64,000 nt of DNA, taken from Patescibacteria group bacterium (GTDB lineage: Bacteria > Patescibacteriota > Minisyncoccia > Phycocordibacterales > UBA2100). Position 1 is the first letter of the stretch. Each line of letters opens with the position of its first letter. Made by a program: the position numbers and the translations under genes. Under the pieces are notes generated by a model. It was given only the letters and a program-made list of their open reading frames with translations. It was not told where the DNA came from and ran no database searches. Below are positions 1 through 28,881 of this stretch, piece after piece. The stretch spans positions 100,406 to 164,405 of the forward strand of contig JBBTSD010000001.1 of the NCBI GenBank assembly GCA_038064835.1, written 5' to 3'.

Positions 1-1440
1 CCCGTTTGTCGCTGTGTGAAACAGCTCCTCGTGTGTATCGAGATCGATTGCGTAGAGTCGTTTATCTAGTGATGCTATAAATACGGTGTCATCTTTTACA
101 AATGGCGAGGAATAGAGTGCCTCTGTTGCTTGAAATGCAAACATGGGCTTTCCGGTATCCACATCAAGCGCATATAGTTTTGAATCCATGGAAGCAGCGA
201 AAACCAGGTTACGCTTTTCGTCGTACGCAGGAGCCATCTTTATATCGCCTCCCGTTTGAAACTTCCAAAGAAGTGTTCCGGATGTTGCTTGGTACGCGGA
301 AAGAGTTCCATTGTTTCCGCCTATAAATACGATTTCTTTTTTTTCCACATACAGTGGGGAAGCGTGTGTCAGATGTGTGCTTCGGGCGGTCCATATGGTT
401 TTCCCGGAATGTATATCAATTGCCGAGATACCTCCACGCCTTCTGAGAAGGCCGAATTCCAGACCGATAAAAATGAAACCAAGGGACTTTGCCAGCGCGG
501 GTGATGAGCCAATCCAATCCGCATCACGATTTATCCAACGGCGGTTACCGTTTGTGGTGTCCAATGCATAGACATTACCGTCATAAGCACCAAAAAAAAC
601 AGTATGGCCGCTGATAAGGGGACTTGATAGTATTCCTTTTCCGGGTGCGTGTGCACCAATGGTATATTCCCAAGCCACAGTGCCTGTTGCTTGGTTGAGT
701 GCACGAAAGACACCGGCATCGTTTCCGTAAAAAAGCCGGTGAGTATCAAGTGCGGGTGTCGACTTATGCACAACTAAGTCAAAGCTAGGAGATTCTGGTG
801 GAGTATAGTGCCACAAAAAATCGAATTGATTGGGTGTCGGACCAGAAGTTTTGCTCAGCGACACACCAAAATCTTTAAGTGAAAAAAATGATTCGAGAGT
901 GATTCCTTGGGCCGCAAAAGGATACGCATTCAAATCTCGAAACGCAAGTATTACTTGAATGGCCGCAATGCGTTTGTGTGCCCTTTGCAATACTATAATC
1001 TCGCGAGCAAGCGTACTACCACTATTTATAAGATCATCGATGAGAATAATAGGGTACTCGTTCAGGGTTCCTTCAATGGTCTTCATGAGGTCATAGCGTT
1101 TGCGAGATTTCCTCAAGTAGAATCCGTTCACTGGTGTGCCGCGTGCAACACTCTTCATAACAATCGCTGTGATAAGTGGAATGCTGGCAGTTTCGAGGCC
1201 ACCGACTTGGAAAGGGAGGTGTCCTTGATATCGTTCCCAAAAGAGTTCGGCGAAACAGTCAAGCCATTCGGGCTGAAGCATGAGTGCTCGGAAATCAAAC
1301 ATCCAGCTTGCACTGCTCCCTACAACACCGTTTTTTGCGATGCGGGCACCGTCTTGTCTCGTGACAAAGGCGTGTTTTAAAATCGCTTGCCTGAAGGCAA
1401 CGAGACGAGTCTCGTTGCCTGGTACAGATTTATTATTCAT
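1..1440 (-). CDS. ComF-like phosphoribosyltransferase domain (N-terminal) fused to a PQQ-like beta-propeller repeat domain; C-terminus runs off the window start (partial)
   Basis: Manual minus-strand translation gives one continuous frame from ATG at 1440: MNNKSVPGNETRLVAF...EYPIILIDDLINSGSTLAREI (PRT-type nucleotide-binding motif, ComF-like), continuing without a stop into repeated ...YGNDAGVFRALNQATGTVAW / FGAYDGNVYALDTTNGNRRW / SKLYALDVDTGKPMF... blades. It is absent from the ORF track because there is no in-window stop. The ATG overlaps the upstream gene's stop (ATGAATAATAA). Confidence 0.55.
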   Translation of the reverse strand, partial: MNNKSVPGNETRLVAFRQAILKHAFVTRQDGARIAKNGVVGSSASWMFDFRALMLQPEWLDCFAELFWERYQGHLPFQVGGLETASIPLITAIVMKSVARGTPVNGFYLRKSRKRYDLMKTIEGTLNEYPIILIDDLINSGSTLAREIIVLQRAHKRIAAIQVILAFRDLNAYPFAAQGITLESFFSLKDFGVSLSKTSGPTPNQFDFLWHYTPPESPSFDLVVHKSTPALDTHRLFYGNDAGVFRALNQATGTVAWEYTIGAHAPGKGILSSPLISGHTVFFGAYDGNVYALDTTNGNRRWINRDADWIGSSPALAKSLGFIFIGLEFGLLRRRGGISAIDIHSGKTIWTARSTHLTHASPLYVEKKEIVFIGGNNGTLSAYQATSGTLLWKFQTGGDIKMAPAYDEKRNLVFAASMDSKLYALDVDTGKPMFAFQATEALYSSPFVKDDTVFIASLDKRLYAIDLDTHEELFHTATNG

Positions 1441-14999: not shown

Positions 15000-15115
15000 G
15001 CGCGGTGACCACCTCGGTCTAGGTCGACTTGACTTTTGGTCCAAATGTGATATCATGCCGTCCAGGCGTGTTTTTGCCTGCAAAACTAGACGATAGACGA
15101 AAAAAGGGATGGAGC

Positions 15116-16126
15116 ATGACGCGAATCCTCGTATTGGCAGTGCTTGCACTGCTTTTTGCCACCCCCGCCATGGCCGCTGACACGGTGACATTGACCTGTG
15201 AAAGGGTCCTGGGCTGGTTCTCGTGGATGGGCTTCCTCAAGACTCTCGGCGTCACGGCGCTCACGGTCGGCATCGGCGGCCTCTTCTGGCACTGGCTCGT
15301 TCCAATCGTTACTGCGCTCTGGAAGGTGCTCGAGAAGGTCATCGATATCGCGGCACTCCTCGCGAGCGCCGCACTGATTGCGAGTGGCCACATCACTCCC
15401 GATGCCTACAAGCTCTGGCCGGTCTTGGGCGGGTCTATCGCATTCGGCGCGAGCACCCTGCTCTTCATCGTCCTGCGTAATATCAAGGGCACCAATCCTG
15501 CAGGCCTCTACGCTTTCCTGGCACTCGTCTGGGGTGGCGTCGCGGTGTTCTACGGCATGAGCGAAGTCGGCTTTCTGACGATGGCGGCTGTCATGGGCGT
15601 CCTCGGCTATACCGTCGTCGTCTCGCCGTTCTGCTACGGCTTCGGCTTCAAAGATGACGACCAGATTGCGACTGGAAGCTCGGCTGCGCTCCTGATCCTC
15701 TCAGCTTACACGGTGCAACATATCTTCTTCCCTGGCGCTCCTGCTTGGGTAAAGGTCTTTGCACCAGGCGCGTTCTGGCTTGGGTCGCTGGTGTCGTTCA
15801 CCGGCATTCTAATCATGTCGAATGTCTGGTACGGACGGGGAGCGGAGCGCTCGAACTACGGCCTCATGCAAGCGGTTGCCCTCGTCATCTATCTGGGCGG
15901 CGTCTTCGCCGGCATGACCTTCGGCATCAATCCGCTCGCGGGCATGGCCGGCTTCTTCTTCGTCTTCTGGGTCGCGGCCAAGTTCATCGAGATCCCGACG
16001 GAGAAGTGGACCGGCTTCTACCTCAAGCTGACTCTGATGGGGGCGTTCCTCTCTGGCGTGTGGTGGATTGGCCACCAGAACGAAGCCCACATCATCAAAT
16101 ACCTCACGACGACGCTCCCGATATGA
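15116..16126 (+). CDS. GC-rich polytopic membrane protein of unknown function, inserted inside the ribosomal-protein operon
   Basis: Start at ATG 15116 after GGATGGAG (listed ORF 15029..16126). Signal peptide MTRILVLAVLALLFATPAMAA, then at least 8 hydrophobic helices. GC is visibly higher (about 60%) than the flanking roughly 50% GC ribosomal genes. Confidence 0.5.
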   Translation: MTRILVLAVLALLFATPAMAADTVTLTCERVLGWFSWMGFLKTLGVTALTVGIGGLFWHWLVPIVTALWKVLEKVIDIAALLASAALIASGHITPDAYKLWPVLGGSIAFGASTLLFIVLRNIKGTNPAGLYAFLALVWGGVAVFYGMSEVGFLTMAAVMGVLGYTVVVSPFCYGFGFKDDDQIATGSSAALLILSAYTVQHIFFPGAPAWVKVFAPGAFWLGSLVSFTGILIMSNVWYGRGAERSNYGLMQAVALVIYLGGVFAGMTFGINPLAGMAGFFFVFWVAAKFIEIPTEKWTGFYLKLTLMGAFLSGVWWIGHQNEAHIIKYLTTTLPI

Positions 16127-16149
16127 GCGTGCACTGAGGTAGAACAAGG

Positions 16150-16172
16150 GCCCCGGGATCATTCCCGGGGCC
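16150..16172. terminator. GC-rich hairpin between convergent genes
   Basis: ccccgggatcattcccgggg, perfect 8-bp stem. Confidence 0.45.
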
Positions 16173-16180
16173 TTCTCATG

Positions 16181-16558
16181 TTAGGTACTCATCTTTGTTT
16201 TCGGTTTCGTTGGGTAGATGAGCCATGCATCCTCTCCGGTCTCCAAGTAGATACACTGTTCACCGAGGATAAACGCTACCTGGGCAAGGAATTTTTCCAA
16301 AACCGGTATTTTTTCCTTCCCGTTGAATGCCACGCTGTACAGGCGGTGTTCCCCGTAGAACATCTCTTGGTCGGCACCTGTCCAATAGCCAAAAATGTTG
16401 CCGGCGGTTACCGTAAATCCGCCGAATTGAGCGATCAAAAAATGCTGGATCGCATCCTCTGCGGTTTGCCGTTTTGTTTCATCCCACCAACTTTTGAGTT
16501 TGAGGGAAGGGAGCAGGAAGACAGCCGGTCTTCCCAGACTCACGCGCTCATATTTCAT
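16181..16558 (-). CDS. Hypothetical 125-aa protein (downstream member of a two-gene antisense pair inside the r-protein cluster)
   Basis: The ORF overlaps the upstream gene by 11 nt. No recognisable motif. Confidence 0.4.
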   Translation of the reverse strand: MKYERVSLGRPAVFLLPSLKLKSWWDETKRQTAEDAIQHFLIAQFGGFTVTAGNIFGYWTGADQEMFYGEHRLYSVAFNGKEKIPVLEKFLAQVAFILGEQCIYLETGEDAWLIYPTKPKTKMST

Positions 16559-17009
16559 TGGCGGCCCTCGTTTTTGTCATGAGTTCCAGAAGGACCTTTG
16601 CTTCCACATCAAACAAGTGGAGACGCTCCTCACAGTACCGGCGCACATCCTCTATGTACAAGCCGTTCCAGGGCGAACCTATGCTAGATATGTCCACAAC
16701 GAGCGGACCACCCAGGCTTGCGACTGGGTACATATCGAGCGCAAGTGCCGGATGATCTGGTGTGTGCATGCGATAGAGCCATGAATGCTCTTGGCCAATG
16801 CGGCCGAAGTAACCGGTTGCCACGCGCCATTCTGAAAATGTCTCCGGCCACCTTTGTTTCATGTAGCGTACAATACCGTGACATGACCAGAGGCCTTCCG
16901 GTTGTATGCCTAGTGGCGCCGGTGGAAGTCTGCCCAATTGCAAGCGCACACTGGCTACCATCTCGCGGAGTCCTTTCGGTGCCCCATAGAATTCAAGGGC
17001 TGTTTTCAT
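16548..17009 (-). CDS. Hypothetical 153-aa protein (upstream member of the antisense pair)
   Basis: Start at ATG 17009, preceded by AGGAGG 8 nt upstream (listed ORF extends to 17048). No recognisable motif. Confidence 0.4.
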   Translation of the reverse strand: MKTALEFYGAPKGLREMVASVRLQLGRLPPAPLGIQPEGLWSCHGIVRYMKQRWPETFSEWRVATGYFGRIGQEHSWLYRMHTPDHPALALDMYPVASLGGPLVVDISSIGSPWNGLYIEDVRRYCEERLHLFDVEAKVLLELMTKTRAANEI

Positions 17010-17108
17010 GGTGTTCCTCCTGCTGTACTCACGCGATAGTAGGCGCATTGTTTGACAATTGCAAGGATTACGCCTATTATTCCGTTCACGCCGTCTGGCG
17101 CTGTTTTT

Positions 17109-17447
17109 ATGGCAAGATCAGTAAAAAAGGGTCCCTTTGTGGACGCAAAACTCGCAAAGAAAGTAGCGGCGCGTAAGCCCGGTGCTGGCTCTATAAAGAC
17201 CTGGGCACGACGCAGCCAGATTCCACCCGAGTTTGTCGGCTATACTTTTGGCGTACATAATGGCAAATTGCATGTCGATGTGCTCGTCACCGAAGAAATG
17301 GTAGGTCATCGTCTTGGCGAATTTTCTCCGACCACTCGGTTCGGTCGTCATGGAGGCAAGATGCAAAAGGAGATCGAAACACAAAAGAAAGAGGCTGAAA
17401 TCGCTGCAGCAAAGTCCGCTAAGGCCGCCACCACCGAGAAGAAGTAA
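17109..17447 (+). CDS. rpsS: 30S ribosomal protein S19
   Basis: [15 protein letters not shown]...[17 protein letters not shown]. Start at ATG 17109. Confidence 0.9.
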
Positions 17448-19874: not shown

Positions 19875-20183
19875 ATGAAAATAAAGAAAGGAGATAAAGT
19901 GATTGTGATTGCGGGCAAGGATCGCGGCAAGACAGGCTCGATTCTGCGTGCACTTCCAAAAACCAATCAGGTCATCATCGATGGTATCAATATGGTCAAG
20001 CGCCACCAGCGAGCAAATCGCGCTGGCCGCAAAGGACAGATTATTGAGCAGGCGATGCCACTCCATGCGTCCAATGTGCAGATTGTAGATCCAAAGTCTG
20101 GCAAACCAACCCGCATAAAGATCGACCGCAAAAATGGCAAGTACGCTCGCGTTGCAAAGAAGAGTGGATCAGCCATCGCATAA
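19875..20183 (+). CDS. rplX: 50S ribosomal protein L24
   Basis: KOW motif KKGDKVIVIAGKDRGKTG. Confidence 0.9.
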   Translation: MKIKKGDKVIVIAGKDRGKTGSILRALPKTNQVIIDGINMVKRHQRANRAGRKGQIIEQAMPLHASNVQIVDPKSGKPTRIKIDRKNGKYARVAKKSGSAIA

Positions 20184-20187
20184 TTTT

Positions 20188-20730
20188 ATGACTTACCACA
20201 CTGTTCAAAAACAAAAGACTGTACTCGCTGCTCTCAAGGAGCGTTTTGGGTACAAAAACCCGATGCAGGCTCCAAAGATTACCAAAGTGGTTGTTTCAGT
20301 GGGTGTCGGGTCTGTTTCTGACAAGAAAAAGAAAGAAATGATTGGTGACCGGCTCATGCGCATCACTGGCCAAAAGCCAGCGTCGCGTGTTGCCAAGAAA
20401 TCTATCGCCTCATTCAAGCTCCGTGCGGGCGAAATGGTGGGGTATCAAATTACGATGCGTGGTGCCCGTATGTGGTCGTTCCTCGACAAGCTTATCCATG
20501 TTGCGCTTCCACGCACACGAGACTTCCGTGGGCTAAAGACATCAGCAATCGATGAAATGGGAAACATCACCATCGCTATTCGTGAACACTCAGTGTTCCC
20601 AGAGACAGCTGATGAAGATGTGCGCGACATCTTTGGTCTTGCCATCACTATTACCACAACTGCAAAAAGCAAAGCCGAAGCCGAAGCACTGTTCCGCCAT
20701 ATCGGACTGCCACTTCAAGAGACGGCATAG
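20188..20730 (+). CDS. rplE: 50S ribosomal protein L5
   Basis: L5-like (NPMQAPKITKVVVSVGVG). Start at ATG 20188. Confidence 0.9.
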   Translation: MTYHTVQKQKTVLAALKERFGYKNPMQAPKITKVVVSVGVGSVSDKKKKEMIGDRLMRITGQKPASRVAKKSIASFKLRAGEMVGYQITMRGARMWSFLDKLIHVALPRTRDFRGLKTSAIDEMGNITIAIREHSVFPETADEDVRDIFGLAITITTTAKSKAEAEALFRHIGLPLQETA

Positions 20731-20802
20731 TATTCACAAGGATGGGTTCGAGAAAGTTGCCAGAGGCAACTTTCTTTCGTAGGGTTACGAAGGATATCGA
20801 TA

Positions 20803-21198
20803 ATGGAGAATACCATGGCGCTTGCGCGCGAAGACATCAAAGTAGGTGCGAAAGTGGGATGGAGCTCGTGGGGCTCCACGCTTGATGATGACCGTTATCA
20901 CCACGATAACTACGGGATGATTGTGGCGGTATGCGAGAAGTCTGGTATTTACCAGGTTCAACATTTGGAACACATGTATATCGGTCGGCACAACATAGTC
21001 ATTGTGAACAAGGACGACACATTCAGCACTCACACCATGACCATTGTTTCTGAGAAGGATTTTCAGGAGGTAGTTCGTCACAAACGAGACGATCTCAAGA
21101 AAAAGATATCCTCACTGAGGAGTTCGCTCGCCGAATCTCTGGCAGAGAGAAAGGTGGTAAGGCTTTTTTCTCAAAAAATGAGGAAGGTTCATGCGTAG
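20803..21198 (+). CDS. Hypothetical 131-aa soluble protein inserted between rplE and rpsN
   Basis: AAGGA RBS 8 nt upstream of the ATG. No recognisable motif. Confidence 0.4.
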   Translation: MENTMALAREDIKVGAKVGWSSWGSTLDDDRYHHDNYGMIVAVCEKSGIYQVQHLEHMYIGRHNIVIVNKDDTFSTHTMTIVSEKDFQEVVRHKRDDLKKKISSLRSSLAESLAERKVVRLFSQKMRKVHA

Positions 21199-21228
21199 GT
21201 TAGTCGCTGTTGACACAGACGGCTCATA

Positions 21229-21256
21229 AAAAAACCGCCGGTTACCCGGCGGTTTT
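21229..21256. terminator. Bidirectional intrinsic terminator between convergent genes
   Basis: aaaaaccgccggttacccggcggtttt with A-run and T-run flanks. Confidence 0.55.
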
Positions 21257-22012
21257 GTTTTTGTCGTCTTCCTCACGCTTTTTCTCGGCGCGGTTTTCTC
21301 GGATAACCTCGATAGTGCTTTTACCTCGGTGTTTCCTGCCATGCCACTCTTTGAGTGACTCTGCTGACCGGGTAACCCACGAAAATAGGGGGCCAAGCCA
21401 CATCCAACGAATCCAAGGATGACGGTCGATGAAAGCTTTCACTGGCGCCCACTTCTCGACTATGATTGACGAGAGGGCATCAAGGCCGATGATTTTGAGT
21501 TTCTCGACCATCATCCAGAGGAGTATCGAGGCGACGAATCCTTCAATCTTGCCGATGTGTTCGTTGATCCAGACAAAGCCCCAAAAGAACAAACTGATGA
21601 TAACGAGTGCGATAAGCGCTCGTACCCAGCGTGGCCAGTCTGGCTTGAAGAGCACGACTCGCTTGAGTGTCTCGAGTATGCGCGATTGTTTCTCGCCAAA
21701 CCACTTCTCGATTTTATCCTGGCGAACCTGTCCTAGTAGGAAGAGGGCAATGAGAATAGTGACGAGCCGCCAGAAGGGGCGCGAGATTTTTCGAATCATC
21801 GTGCGTTCAGTTAAGCCGCGGATACTGGTTGCAAGCGATTGCGAGAAGATGCCGACCAGACGGGCAAAGAATTCAACAATTGCTCGCCATAGCCAGATGA
21901 TCATCCGGCCGGCGGCTCCGAGGATGTCTGTGTCAAAGATACGGTCGATGACATGTATGCCACCCACAAAGAGAGCAAGCATGAGTATGATGCGGACGGC
22001 AATGATTACCAC
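21242..22012 (-). CDS. Hypothetical membrane protein (GTG start, AGGAGG RBS), antisense to the r-protein operon
   Basis: 256 aa, several TM helices and a K/E-rich charged C-terminus. Confidence 0.45.
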   Translation of the reverse strand: MVIIAVRIILMLALFVGGIHVIDRIFDTDILGAAGRMIIWLWRAIVEFFARLVGIFSQSLATSIRGLTERTMIRKISRPFWRLVTILIALFLLGQVRQDKIEKWFGEKQSRILETLKRVVLFKPDWPRWVRALIALVIISLFFWGFVWINEHIGKIEGFVASILLWMMVEKLKIIGLDALSSIIVEKWAPVKAFIDRHPWIRWMWLGPLFSWVTRSAESLKEWHGRKHRGKSTIEVIRENRAEKKREEDDKNKTAG

Positions 22013-22114
22013 TGTAGACCTCCTTCCCTATAGTTCCGAGTTTGATTATGACATCTTTTACCACTGTAAGCAATACTCGTGTACGAGGCCTCGGGAAAGT
22101 TGCCCTATGAGTTT

Positions 22115-22144
22115 GTTGACAATCCGTCGTGAAGGGCATAGTAT
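22115..22144 (+). promoter_or_regulatory. Putative sigma70-type promoter restarting transcription before rpsN
   Basis: TTGACA (22115-22120), 18-nt spacer, TAGTAT (22139-22144). Confidence 0.4.
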
Positions 22145-22173
22145 GCACAAGCCTTTTTAGGCCCATTTTTCTT

Positions 22174-22359
22174 ATGGCAAAGACATCCATGATTGCAAAA
22201 GCTAACCGCCCTCCGAAATACAAGAGTCGGGTGGTTCGTCGGTGCTTCCGTTGTGGGAGGCCGCGAGGCTATATGCGCGCCTTTGGCTTTTGCCGTATCT
22301 GTTTCCGCGAACAGGCTCTCGAGGGGCACATTCCTGGGGTAAAGAAGTCTTCTTGGTAA
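22174..22359 (+). CDS. rpsN: 30S ribosomal protein S14, Zn-binding type (S14 type Z)
   Basis: 61 aa [46 protein letters not shown] with a CxxC...CxxC motif. Start at ATG 22174. Confidence 0.85.
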
Positions 22360-22360
22360 T

Positions 22361-22756
22361 ATGCTACACGATCCCATCAGCGACATGGTTGTCCGTCTCC
22401 GCAATGCAGGAGCGGTAAAGAAACAAACAACCTTAGTTCCTTTTTCACAGCTCAAGATGGCTATCGCTGGCAAGCTCGCCGAGCATGGCTACATCAAGTC
22501 TGCCGAGCTGAAAGGCAAGAAGGTGAAAAAGATGCTCGAGGTAGCTCTTGCATACAACGAGGATGGAACACCAAAGATTCGTGGCACCAAGCGGATTTCA
22601 AAGCCTGGCCGTCGCATGTATACGCTAGTGCGCAATATTGCTCCTGTAAAATTTGGTCATGGCACAGTAATTATTTCAACTCCCAAAGGGATACTCACGG
22701 GTACCGAAGCGCGCAAACAAAATGTCGGCGGAGAGATTCTGTTTGAAATCTGGTAA
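22361..22756 (+). CDS. rpsH: 30S ribosomal protein S8
   Basis: S8-like (DPISDMVVRLRNA). Confidence 0.9.
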   Translation: MLHDPISDMVVRLRNAGAVKKQTTLVPFSQLKMAIAGKLAEHGYIKSAELKGKKVKKMLEVALAYNEDGTPKIRGTKRISKPGRRMYTLVRNIAPVKFGHGTVIISTPKGILTGTEARKQNVGGEILFEIW

Positions 22757-26065: not shown

Positions 26066-27352
26066 ATGCGTATAACAGTGTTTGGGAGCGATGCGCGGGC
26101 GCACGCTCTGTGCACACGACTGACGATGGATACTGTAAAGCCCGTCGTTACCTGCGTGCCGGGAAATGCGGGAATGAAAGAACCGATTCGGCGCAAGCAC
26201 ATACTTCCTGCGTGTATGGACAATCTTGCACGGTCTGTAGAAGGAAGTTGTGATCTGGCCATAGTTGGGTCTGATAGACTTCTAGCACAAGGACTTTCTG
26301 ACAAACTCCGAGAGCGAGGGATTCCGACTTTTGGTCCGTCGAAATGTGCTTCAGAAATTGAATGGAGCAAATTGTTCGCAAAGAGCCTGATGGATCGCTA
26401 TCGTATTCCCACAGCCAAATGGGGTGCAACCAGTGATGAAGGAATGGCTCGCGCAATGGTAAAGGAACTCGGTGGACCTCCTATTGTACTCAAGGCTGAC
26501 GGTCTTGCCGACGGTAAAGGAGTTTTTGTCGCCGATACGGACATCGAGGTCGATGAGGCGATCACCGCTCTTTTCACTGAGAGACGATTTGGCGGTTCAA
26601 AAACTGTCATTATTGAAGAAAAACTCAGTGGATGCGAAGTCTCATACACCGCTCTGTGTGATGGTAGGCGCATCATGCCACTTCCTTGCGCTATGGACTA
26701 TAAGCAGGCGCTCGCCGGTGATAAAGGCCCAAATACGGGTGGTATGGGGGCACATAGTCCTTCGTTTGTACTCACTCCGGCACAGTGTGCGTGGATTGAT
26801 GTGCATATTATGCAAAAGGTGGTTGACGCACTTGCTTCGCAGGGGCTTGAATATCGCGGCGCGCTCTATGCGGGATTGATGGTTCTTCCTGGGGGAGATA
26901 TCCGGGTCATCGAATTCAACGCTCGCTTTGGCGATCCTGAGTGCCAAGTGCTGATGCCACGAATTGGCGAGGACTTGGCACCGCTTTTGTTGGCGGCCGC
27001 GACGGGGAATCTTTCTCCTCGTCCGGTTCGGGTTATGCCAGGCGCCGCTGTATGCGTTACGCTCGCAAGCGCTCCATACCCCGAGAAAGCGACTCCTAAA
27101 GGATTTGTCATCGATGGAATTCTCGCGGCAGAAAAAATTCCTGGGGTGCACCTATATCATGCACACACCACTCGGCAAGGGGATGCTTCTTACATCGAAG
27201 CAGGTGGGCGAGTACTGAGCGTGTGCGCCAATGCCGATTCTTTCAAAATGGCCCTAGAAAAGGCTTATGTGGCGGCCAGGACCATCACTTGGCGAGACAA
27301 GACAATGCGTCAGGACATAGGCTGGCGGGTACTTGACAAATATACCAGATAG
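26066..27352 (+). CDS. purD: Phosphoribosylamine-glycine ligase (GAR synthetase), divergent
   Basis: ATP-grasp PurD-like (MRITVFGSDARAHAL ...). Unusual location between secY and adk. Confidence 0.7.
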   Translation: MRITVFGSDARAHALCTRLTMDTVKPVVTCVPGNAGMKEPIRRKHILPACMDNLARSVEGSCDLAIVGSDRLLAQGLSDKLRERGIPTFGPSKCASEIEWSKLFAKSLMDRYRIPTAKWGATSDEGMARAMVKELGGPPIVLKADGLADGKGVFVADTDIEVDEAITALFTERRFGGSKTVIIEEKLSGCEVSYTALCDGRRIMPLPCAMDYKQALAGDKGPNTGGMGAHSPSFVLTPAQCAWIDVHIMQKVVDALASQGLEYRGALYAGLMVLPGGDIRVIEFNARFGDPECQVLMPRIGEDLAPLLLAAATGNLSPRPVRVMPGAAVCVTLASAPYPEKATPKGFVIDGILAAEKIPGVHLYHAHTTRQGDASYIEAGGRVLSVCANADSFKMALEKAYVAARTITWRDKTMRQDIGWRVLDKYTR

Positions 27353-27516
27353 GTATACAATAATAAGACGCTAGGTAGGCCCCGCAAGGCTCGGCCGAGC
27401 CTAGGTCGGCAATGGCAACCCCGTTAGTGTTGCCTCAATGATAGGATTTTTTCGGAGGACCCGGCACATGCACTGGCCGTAGGTACTCAACAACACGAGA
27501 TTGATTATGACGGGAC

Positions 27517-27547
27517 CCGCTAACCATGCGGGTCCCACTTTTTTGCC
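27517..27547 (+). terminator. Intrinsic terminator
   Basis: gggacccgctaaccatgcgggtccc followed by ttttttt. Confidence 0.55.
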
Positions 27548-27698
27548 CCAACATGGGGCCTGCTCAGATGGATGCAGTTCTAGGCGCGCAAGAAACAGAC
27601 GACGAGGCGTACTGAGGTAGTACGACAAGGAGTATGTTTTGAAGCGCAACGAAGAAATGCGCCATGTGTGCAGGCCCCGCATCTGGTATTATGCCTGC

Positions 27699-28286
27699 AT
27701 GAAGCATGAGCCAAAAAGAGTGGTGGTCATTGCTGGTCCGTCAGGGTCCGGCGAAAGCACTTTCACGGAAGAGCTTATGCTTGCATACCCGAATTTTACT
27801 CGCACAGTTTCCGCAACCACACGGGCTCCCCGCGGAAACGAGAAGGATGGCGTGGACTATTATTTTATGACCAAGGAGAAGTTTTTTGAAGAAGTGCAAA
27901 ATGGCAACATCCCCGAGCATGTGCTCGTGCGGGCACGCGACGCCTACTACGGTACTTATTTGCCCGACCTCACCAGGCGATTGGCATCAGGAAAAACAGT
28001 TGTTGCCAACACCGATTTGTCTGGAGCGGAGTATTACAAAAAAAACTACAATGCGGTGACCGTTTTCATAAAACCAAAATCAATTTTTTCTCTGTACAAT
28101 CGTTTGGTGCATCGCGACCCCACTATGCCCAAGGAAGAAGTGCTTACCCGCGTCATGAGCGCTGTCCAAGAAATACTTGAGGCTGAAAGCAACTATGATC
28201 ATGTGGTATTTACAGGGGACAATGAATTTGCAGAAACCCTCATTCACATTGTCGATAAACTGAAGCATGAAGGGTATGTCGTTTAG
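27699..28286 (+). CDS. gmk: Guanylate kinase
   Basis: P-loop VIAGPSGSGESTF with a guanylate-kinase-like fold (YYF, TTR). Confidence 0.7.
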   Translation: MKHEPKRVVVIAGPSGSGESTFTEELMLAYPNFTRTVSATTRAPRGNEKDGVDYYFMTKEKFFEEVQNGNIPEHVLVRARDAYYGTYLPDLTRRLASGKTVVANTDLSGAEYYKKNYNAVTVFIKPKSIFSLYNRLVHRDPTMPKEEVLTRVMSAVQEILEAESNYDHVVFTGDNEFAETLIHIVDKLKHEGYVV

Positions 28287-28881
28287 TCACCATGTCATCC
28301 GTCCTGGGGTGGTTATCGTTGCAGGTCCTACGGGGGTGGGTAAGGACAGTATTGTCCGAGAAATTATCGCACAATGCGAGGGGTGTGTAGAACTAATCAC
28401 TGCCACGACCAGAAAGCGTCGCGAAAATGAAGGGCAGGGCGAATATCATTTTTTTACAAACGAGGTATTTGACAAGGCACTCGCCTCTGGTGAAATACCC
28501 GAACACTGGACACATCCAAGCGGTGCCCGTTACGGCACCTACTTGCCCTATCTCACGGAACAACTTGGAAAAGGGAAGGTGATTATAGGGGATATGAATA
28601 TTGTGGGGGCACGGTACATGAAGGAGAATCACCGCGCGCTGACACTATTTATTCTCCCTCCGGACTTCTCGGTGCTACGAGAACGAATAATCAAACGAGG
28701 GCGTCATGATCTTTCGGAAAAAGAGATAGATGCGCGACTTCGGCTTGCGCAGCAAGAGATTGCCGAGCACTCGCCTTGGTACGATTATCGTGTAATAAAC
28801 AGAGAAAACCAGCTCGATACTGCAGTGCAAGAAGTCCTTGAGATTCTGACAAAAGAAGGCTATTGTGTCAGTGATGTCTGA
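28267..28881 (+). CDS. Guanylate-kinase-like paralog with divergent P-loop
   Basis: VIVAGPTGVGKDSIVREI...TTRKRRENEGQGEYHFF. It overlaps the gmk stop and is a tandem duplicate. Confidence 0.55.
   Translation: MKGMSFSHHVIRPGVVIVAGPTGVGKDSIVREIIAQCEGCVELITATTRKRRENEGQGEYHFFTNEVFDKALASGEIPEHWTHPSGARYGTYLPYLTEQLGKGKVIIGDMNIVGARYMKENHRALTLFILPPDFSVLRERIIKRGRHDLSEKEIDARLRLAQQEIAEHSPWYDYRVINRENQLDTAVQEVLEILTKEGYCVSDV

Follow-up and report, generated by a model that had tools for sequence, protein, structure and literature searches.

A genome-specific islet of two unrelated genes between rplE and rpsN in a Patescibacteria genome, probably at one of two gene-gain junctions of the Paceibacteria ribosomal protein cluster

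Organization of the rplE–rpsN junction

The window analysed here is a 64,000-nt stretch of DNA that carries the ribosomal protein cluster of a groundwater Patescibacteria metagenome-assembled genome (GCA_964361175.1, contig CAYHZP010000001.1, 330,809 bp). Within this cluster, rplE and rpsN are separated by a gap of 1,443 bp that holds two non-ribosomal open reading frames (ORFs), ORF131 and, convergent to it, ORF256 (Table 1). The G+C content of the insert (0.49) is close to that of the genome (0.50). A first-pass annotation, made from the sequence alone, had described the stretch as an interruption of the rplE–rpsN adjacency by a soluble 131-aa protein and a convergent 256-aa membrane protein with a GTG start and an AGGAGG ribosome-binding site, separated by a bidirectional terminator. 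Both ORFs are present as described, the adjacency is indeed broken by non-ribosomal genes, and a hairpin with U-runs on both strands is predicted between the ORFs.

Six contigs from different runs and assemblers are 100% identical over 20101–22400 wherever they overlap, and three of them span the region fully. For this reason the arrangement is not regarded as a chimera or an assembly artefact. That the genome is metagenome-assembled speaks for an assembly or binning error, but with identical contigs across both junctions, one of them 331 kb long, such an error has practically no chance of being the explanation, and it is refuted as far as sequence data allow. The same-species contigs show no sequence variation here, so that the ratio of nonsynonymous to synonymous substitution rates cannot be taken from population data.

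Table 1. Features of the rplE–rpsN junction, in window coordinates
Feature	Position	Strand	Remarks
rplE (uL5)	20188..20730	+	Pfam Ribosomal_L5, L5_C; closes the rpsS–rplE block
rplE stop codon TAG	20728..20730	+	From the sequence
17-nt direct repeat, left copy, GGCATAGTATTCACAAG	20724..20740	+	Last rplE codon, stop and 10 nt downstream
14-nt repeat, left copy, TCGAGAAAGTTGCC	20748..20761	+	Contained in the post-rplE hairpin
12-bp perfect palindromic hairpin, GAGAAAGTTGCC-AGA-GGCAACTTTCTT	20750..20776	+	Just 3' of rplE
ORF131	20803..21198	+	131-aa orphan, 72 nt after rplE
Two-way intrinsic terminator (predicted)	21228..21259 (hairpin 21231..21256)	both	Shared by ORF131 and ORF256
ORF256	21242..22012	-	GTG start at 22012; AGGAGG at 22024–22019, 6 nt upstream
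ORF256 candidate weak promoter, TTGCTT-17-CATAAT	22045..22073	-	8/12 matches; read from the sequence
14-nt repeat, right copy, TCGGGAAAGTTGCC	22091..22104	+	Between the divergent promoters
rpsN promoter-like site, TTGACA-17-TAGTAT	22116..22144	+	10/12 matches
17-nt repeat, right copy, GGCATAGTATGCACAAG	22135..22151	+	-6 to +10 relative to the rplE end
rpsN leader, short	22151..22173	+	Small hairpin GCCTTTTTAGGC, then a U-rich tract; no Shine-Dalgarno sequence
rpsN (uS14, 61-aa Zn-ribbon form)	22174..22359	+	Pfam Ribosomal_S14; opens the rpsN–secY block

The hairpin of the predicted terminator, AAAACCGCCGG-TTAC-CCGGCGGTTTT, has an 11-bp stem with 7 GC pairs and is followed by a U-run in both directions (tails UUUUGUUUUU and UUUUUUUAU). 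Its folding energy is -22.9 kcal/mol on the forward and -20.1 kcal/mol on the reverse strand (z -5.0 and -4.1), no shuffled sequence being equally stable, and the stop codon of ORF256 lies inside the loop. Rfam has no family in the region; the only match of the terminator, to sroD, has an E value of 0.48 and is noise. The hairpin behind rplE lacks a proper U-tract and so probably stabilises the 3' end or terminates weakly; the terminator scan misses it. Together with a second small hairpin it forms a 51-nt stretch (20740–20790) of -19.2 kcal/mol (z -3.7), and a hairpin directly 3' of rplE also occurs in three related loci (L005, L004 and L093).

A scan for promoters with a threshold of 9/12 matches finds none upstream of ORF131. 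Since the post-rplE hairpin also has no U-tract, ORF131 is probably read through from the rpsS–rplE transcript, which would end at the two-way terminator. The candidate promoter of ORF256 falls below the threshold; we infer only that this gene may be expressed from it. The site upstream of rpsN is among the four best matches in 18 kb (15029, 17052, 22116 and 27333). The first-pass annotation had recognised this promoter with a spacer of 18 nt; the site is there, but its spacer is 17.

The leader between this site and rpsN is ∼23 nt long, and its hairpin is weak (-7.2 kcal/mol, z -1.2). The leader of rpsS (17086–17108) has the same design, with no Shine-Dalgarno sequence and a hairpin followed by UUUUU(N2-4) and AUGGCAA (17086–17111 for rpsS, 22151–22176 for rpsN). 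The perfect AGGAGG of ORF256 contrasts with these two. Relatives with short rpsN leaders share the hairpin and U-run, an arrangement that looks like a terminator set right after the promoter. The 61-aa rpsN gene is absent from the public gene calls on every same-species contig covering the site, the tables jumping from ORF256 to rpsH.

The two cargo proteins

ORF131 has no predicted transmembrane or hydrophobic segment and a calculated isoelectric point (pI) of 9.0. It is called a gene because it is long enough, has a ribosome-binding site and is followed by the terminator 30 nt past its stop codon. A word-index search of 5.8e9 proteins returns only ORF131 itself, and in an exhaustive HMMER search of 1.84e9 representatives the sole extra match is one of low complexity, to the C-terminal helix. 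It has no match among the families of Pfam, NCBIfam, PHROGs and PADLOC or the sequences of the PDB. A single-sequence AlphaFold2 model (predicted local distance difference test, pLDDT, 57) has four weakly predicted beta strands and a long basic C-terminal helix (residues 84–130).

ORF256 encodes an all-helical membrane protein of pI 10.6 with about five transmembrane helices, judged from five hydrophobic segments in the hydropathy profile. Its GTG start is supported by an end-to-end N-terminal alignment with six homologues, and the public call of 246 aa is too short. The family comprises seven clusters among the 5.8e9 proteins, with members that are 45–55% identical and share the motifs FKPDWPR, EKWAPVK and RWxWLGPxFxW. 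Homologues are found in a Hyphomicrobiaceae metagenome-assembled genome, on a 6.05-Mb contig of 62% G+C (L001) and on a few short contigs (also L090, L091 and P0008). None adjoins ribosomal genes and no neighbouring gene is conserved; one lies next to what we take to be a gene for a Bug-type solute-binding protein. The family thus links a genome of the Candidate Phyla Radiation (CPR) with Proteobacteria-like genomes, with no intermediates, a distribution that suggests transfer across phyla. An AlphaFold2 model from the six-sequence alignment reaches a pLDDT of 54, and this model and that of ORF131 are both too poor for a fold search. Remote-homology searches of the two proteins, which the first-pass annotation had proposed, gave nothing informative; for ORF256 this covers single-sequence and profile searches, Pfam, NCBIfam, PHROGs, PADLOC and PDB sequences.

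Neither ORF has a significant match to a toxin, antitoxin or defence family in PADLOC, Pfam or PHROGs, and neither has a match in Pfam, NCBIfam or PHROGs that would make it a transposase. A viral origin was considered and rejected: neither protein matches viral contigs, and those of IMG/VR contain no relative of ORF256 and no copy of the palindrome. From their distributions, the two proteins are taken to be independent passengers, of which at least ORF256 appears to be horizontally scattered.

Two hotspots in the ribosomal protein cluster of relatives

Related clusters were collected with the L5 protein of the window as query, giving two sets of 80 loci each, one from GTDB species representatives and one from metagenomes. 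Eighteen cluster genes were placed in each locus and the 17 junctions between them measured, and the counts below are from 142 non-redundant loci. Most of the related records are titled Kaiserbacteria, Paceibacteria or Parcubacteria. None in the GTDB species set or the JGI metagenomes exceeds ∼79% identity in L5.

Gaps are concentrated at two junctions. At rplB|rpsS, 47 of 73 loci (64%) have a gap of more than 300 bp, and 30 have more than 1 kb; at rplE|rpsN the figures are 54 of 94 (57%) and 33. The 15 other junctions combined have a single gap above 300 bp and none above 1 kb. Both hotspots emerge independently from the genome set and from the metagenome set. In relatives with an empty junction, rplE and rpsN are adjacent with a short spacer. 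The companion insertion between rplB and rpsS that the first-pass annotation had listed (15000–17108) is real, but its view that a rigid operon is repeatedly targeted as a trait of this genome does not hold, the same two junctions being occupied in most related loci.

The cargo itself is mixed. Singletons make up 149 of the 185 gap ORFs, and the recognisable ones include S-adenosylmethionine (SAM) methyltransferases, membrane-anchored PaaX_M/Cas2-like proteins, MazF, Phd/Gp49, GNAT, EamA, ROK, NADAR, ParB-like, AbiEii, Fic and radical SAM proteins, an IS200 transposase and pur genes. A 193–196-aa protein that combines an N-terminal hydrophobic segment with a PaaX_M/Cas2-like domain recurs on the reverse strand at rplE|rpsN (L015:8626-9213, L011/L101, L095/L096, L008 and L010), as does a family of ∼250-aa class I methyltransferases, in six other relatives.

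No relative of ORF131 or ORF256 is found by tblastn in the 160 related loci, and the nearest relatives hold wholly different cargo at rplE|rpsN. The synteny comparison suggested by the first-pass annotation thus finds an insert whose content is not conserved. Since ORF131 has no relatives and the family of ORF256 lies away from ribosomal loci, the cargo is specific to the genome of the window. On this survey, the cargo of the window is private while the rplE|rpsN site is a class-wide hotspot. A literature search returned no description of either junction in CPR.

These data also bear on the idea that ORF131, ORF256 or both are lineage-specific ribosome or translation factors kept in the cluster for co-expression. 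ORF131 would suit such a role, as it follows closely on rplE without a promoter of its own and is basic with a long helical tail typical of small RNA- or ribosome-binding proteins. However, no relative conserves either protein, ORF256 lies on the opposite strand and encodes a membrane protein whose homologues are never beside translation genes, and the cargo found at this site elsewhere is functionally miscellaneous. The idea is considered very improbable.

Conserved promoter patterns and probable transcription units

In relatives, promoters were sought with the pattern TTGACN-16..18-TANNNT at most 280 nt upstream of a gene. It is found upstream of rpsS in 79 of 99 loci and of rpsN in 73 of 94, or ∼80%, compared with 0–2% for most other cluster genes. 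The exceptions are rplB (14%) and rpsH (11%), the latter due to spill-over from the rpsN promoter. The pattern is also present in 35 of 40 empty rplE|rpsN junctions, so that a promoter in front of rpsN appears to be the ancestral norm rather than a repair of the insertion in the window. The promoter restart of the rpsN block proposed in the first-pass annotation is therefore only partly correct: the -10 element of the window promoter does lie in a copy of the rplE end (see below), but a predicted promoter at this position is usual in relatives.

The two junctions are best read as ancestral transcription-unit boundaries that tolerate insertions, and on these predicted promoters the cluster appears to be split into at least three units, one ending with rplB, a second from rpsS to rplE and a third from rpsN to secY. 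It is because of the internal promoters that insertions with terminators would be tolerated at exactly these two places. In Gammaproteobacteria and Bacilli, small insertions enter between the operons of the conserved cluster (PMC8046335), and with both junctions as predicted promoter boundaries the present case matches that rule.

A boundary that would be this old, and that is mostly occupied, raises the alternative that nothing was inserted in the window. ORF131 and ORF256 would then be old, vertically inherited residents of an ancient inter-operon spacer that have diverged, with the repeats described below acting as regulatory elements such as operator sites. The insert does match the genome in G+C content, and a palindrome with a half-site could be bound by a protein. 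Yet ORF256 is 45–55% identical to proteins of Proteobacteria and absent from the 160 related loci, and the closest relatives carry entirely different cargo. There is also no regulatory rationale for a repeat that copies a coding end and stop codon, the right copy of which is almost entirely upstream of the expected transcription start. This alternative is accordingly regarded as improbable.

Between the rpsN promoter and start codon, relatives carry a conserved structured RNA of ∼110 nt, which is absent from the window (examples: L052:8554-8706, L043:8550-8692, L140:1170-1318, L005 and L004). It consists of a 5' hairpin, GCCUCGYAGGGGGC, with a U-run, an outer helix, an internal loop (AUAAY/RUGCA), an inner helix and a GNRA hairpin. 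All of 26 sequences, folded alone, adopt the same shape, with many compensatory changes. A strict pattern for it matches upstream of rpsN in 31 of 110 loci, with just 5 further matches elsewhere in the 3.2 Mb; it has no Rfam match and no copies were found in the window. It is a candidate for a new ribosomal-protein leader, and S8 could be guessed as its ligand.

Flanking repeats and copies of the rplE 3' end

Two direct repeats flank the insert. The first, of 17 nt (GGCATAGTATKCACAAG), has 16 of 17 positions identical between the copies at 20724 and 22135, and the second, of 14 nt (TCGRGAAAGTTGCC), has 13 of 14 identical (20748 and 22091). Both have only two copies within the 64 kb. A repeat as long as the first is reached in none of 1000 shuffles and none of 990 pairs of real regions, and a second-best repeat of at least 14 nt is never reached in the same controls. 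In L140, L005, L004 and L093, the closest relatives, the rplE stop is at the same position (...GLPL.E.A*), and L140 shares the GCA-TAG. As the left 17-mer lies on this ancestral Ala-stop of rplE, it is taken to be the original sequence, of which the right 17-mer is a duplicate. There, the copied TAG (22139–22141) and the following TAT form the -10 hexamer TAGTAT of the rpsN promoter, while the -35 element TTGACA lies 17 nt upstream in insert DNA. From this layout, the rpsN promoter of the window appears to be a hybrid that arose through the rearrangement.

Copies of the rplE 3' end are not restricted to the window. Direct copies are found in the gap at 8 of 54 occupied junctions (gapped blastn, E<1e-4), with lengths of 26–120 nt and identities of 85–97%; counted from the stop, they typically extend from about -75 to +12. 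Tested in this way, the 3' ends of nine other ribosomal genes yield 0/433 and the 5' region of rpsN yields 0/54. An earlier ungapped test for flanking repeats in relatives, allowing at most one mismatch, gave a mean equal to that of the control. The copies lie to the right of the PaaX_M-like gene in L015, L011/L101 and L095/L096, of a Phd/Gp49 toxin-antitoxin pair in L005 and of uncharacterised genes in L106, while that in L016 begins the other way round, 145 nt after rplE and on the left of its cargo, an uncharacterised 299-aa gene. Several are in mid-gap with more cargo beyond them, as expected for serial integrations. The right copy of the window and the copies in L015, L106 and L101 have a 3' limit of ∼+10 in common. 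These duplicates of the rplE end, with none in the controls, point to recurrent integration at the rplE 3' end without an integrase.

The sole inverted pair spanning the insert is one arm of the left palindrome against the right 14-nt repeat, which are not element ends. With no transposase and no terminal inverted repeats in the insert, and with the flanking motifs confined to this locus in the 64 kb, the stretch does not look like an insertion sequence or transposon. The 17-nt repeat is longer than typical transposase target-site duplications. Nor does the stretch look like an integron cassette array, as no integrase is seen and the repeats are gene-end copies rather than attC-like imperfect palindromes. 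A single tandem duplication, a long target duplication and an inversion were each tried as explanations for the nested order of the repeats, and none fits.

A more serious competitor is that the stretch is the remnant of a site-specific integrative element, with the rplE 3' end as attachment site and the 17-nt repeat as att core. On this view a recombinase would bind at the 14-nt repeats and the palindrome, and the integrase would have been lost or would act in trans. Direct repeats spanning the 3' end of the target gene are what islands at tRNA genes have, the limit near +10 nt is shared by four genomes, the 14-nt repeats are sub-terminal with the left one forming a perfect palindrome, and the mid-gap copies in relatives resemble serial integrations. 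On the other side, no integrase or recombinase is found in the insert or among the Pfam matches listed for the 103 gap ORFs of relatives concerned (25 of 38 families listed). Further copies of the repeats and palindrome are lacking in the window, the palindrome is not found in viral contigs, and the copies in relatives, in their length and degree of identity, fit homology-driven recombination at least as well. An origin of this kind is judged unlikely.

Proposed mode of entry

On balance, the 1.44-kb stretch is probably a genome-specific islet of two unrelated genes, at one of two junctions in the Paceibacteria cluster that serve both as unit boundaries and as sites of gene gain. The cargo would have entered by recombination at the 3' end of rplE, duplicating its target. 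The simplest route is a Campbell-type single crossover of a circular DNA that carried a 3' fragment of rplE; alternatively, a recombinase may have acted in trans. The junction before entry is predicted to read rplE...GGCATAGTATKCACAAG-CCTTTTTAGGCCC...rpsN, and that of the circle ...CGTCGTGAAG-GGCATAGTATKCACAAG-GATGGGTTCGAG.... After entry, the duplicated stop-codon region would provide the -10, and the right end of the insert the -35, of a promoter for the genes from rpsN to secY. Both the read-through from rpsS–rplE–ORF131 and the convergent transcripts of ORF256 would stop at the two-way terminator, and hence there would be no polarity on the downstream ribosomal genes.

Several observations weigh against this interpretation. 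No empty-site allele or circular form was found, as the contigs with identical L5, S8 or ORF131 all have the same arrangement, so that we infer the insertion event rather than observe it. The 17-nt repeat is short, and simple target duplication does not explain the nested 14-nt repeat, the order being 17 then 14 on the left and 14 then 17 on the right. The lack of a recombinase in the insert and among the listed matches of relatives belongs here as well. The codon-based coding score of ORF131 is positive but modest, and an antisense ORF scores equally. Promoter, terminator and read-through into ORF131 are all predictions. Finally, the closest relatives (L140, L005 and L004) have a long structured rpsN leader and the genome of the window does not, from which it follows that the junction has been remodelled more than once.

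A wider and more tentative proposal, for which the odds are rather low, is that the rplE 3' end of Paceibacteria, and more weakly that of rplB, is an integrase-free dock for small circular cargo that bears a copy of the conserved gene end and can stack, excise and be exchanged from genome to genome, making the most conserved bacterial gene cluster the seat of a cassette-exchange platform. Each single-crossover event would then leave a displaced copy of the rplE end, and the cell would be protected from harm at this site by the conserved internal promoters and, in many members, by the structured rpsN leader RNA. At rplB|rpsS, loci L028 and L053 have direct copies of 20–30 nt of the rplB stop-codon region inside the gap, and the same mechanism may operate there at lower frequency; no such rplB-end repeat is found in the rplB|rpsS insert of the window.

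Relation to known systems

The S10–spc ribosomal protein cluster is a textbook example of unchanging gene order. In the cluster of Paceibacteria, a large class of ultra-small bacteria, there are two precise soft spots, and unrelated genes have been added there in over half of the genomes. Binning and checking of CPR genomes commonly rely on the synteny of ribosomal clusters, and variation at these junctions is therefore to be expected in that work.

A close precedent is the description of inter-operon insertions from 2019, in which a few unrelated genes are lodged between contiguous transcription and translation operons, mostly at operon boundaries, with lineage-specific content and with duplication or mobile elements as the suspected source (PMC6735719). 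The present case shares these features but differs in the boundaries concerned (rplB|rpsS and rplE|rpsN), in an occupancy of 57–64% across the class rather than a sporadic one, and in the duplicates of the gene 3' end at the rplE junction. On the E. coli map, both junctions fall inside operons, those of S10 and spc. The soft spots of Paceibacteria coincide instead with predicted internal promoters that would divide the cluster into at least three units.

The concept of horizontal-transfer hotspots between core genes reportedly comes from Oliveira, Touchon and Rocha in 2017. As in such hotspots, one pair of core genes flanks different accessory genes, with toxin-antitoxin, methyltransferase and orphan genes enriched. 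The islets here differ in being only 0.3–6 kb long, without an integrase, and inside the most conserved bacterial cluster of reduced CPR genomes.

Genomic islands are known to integrate at the 3' end of tRNA, transfer-messenger RNA (tmRNA) and housekeeping genes, duplicating the gene end. The likeness is that the repeat is the 3' end of the target gene, with the intact gene on one side and a displaced partial copy beyond the cargo, and that serial copies suggest tandem integrations. In contrast to such islands, genes for tyrosine or serine recombinases are lacking here, the cargo amounts to one or two genes, and the repeat in the window is only 17 nt long. Insertion sequences can form hybrid promoters by joining an outward -35 to a resident -10. 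The predicted promoter of rpsN has the same composition, a -35 in inserted DNA and a -10 in the (duplicated) target serving the downstream genes, but there is no transposase, there are no terminal inverted repeats, and the -10 stems from a copied stop codon (TAG-TAT).

Taken by itself, the islet of orphan genes in the window is small and ordinary. Insertions between operons, hotspots of transfer and integration at the 3' end of genes are known; what is new is the class-wide pattern of two sites, the conserved predicted promoters inside the cluster and the duplicates of the rplE end. The latter point to a simple, possibly RecA-driven way of gaining and swapping genes in reduced genomes with few mobile-element enzymes.

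Other interruptions of the cluster in the window

At the start of the insert at rplB|rpsS, a promoter at 15029 (TTGACT-16-TATCAT, with TG) and a hairpin precede a gene for a 336-aa protein with eight hydrophobic segments (15116–16126; G+C content 0.60 vs 0.50 for the genome), a terminator-like hairpin at 16149–16172, and two ORFs on the reverse strand, of 125 aa (16181–16558) and 166 aa (16548–17048). None of the ORFs has a family match. In L004, the same junction contains a homologue of the 125-aa ORF with 60% identity, and so part of the rplB|rpsS cargo is older than that at rplE|rpsN.

A third interruption lies between secY and adk (26066–28881). It comprises purD (26066–27352), a consensus promoter at 27333–27361, a terminator-like hairpin at 27512–27536 and two tandem guanylate-kinase-like paralogues (27639–28286 and 28267–28881).

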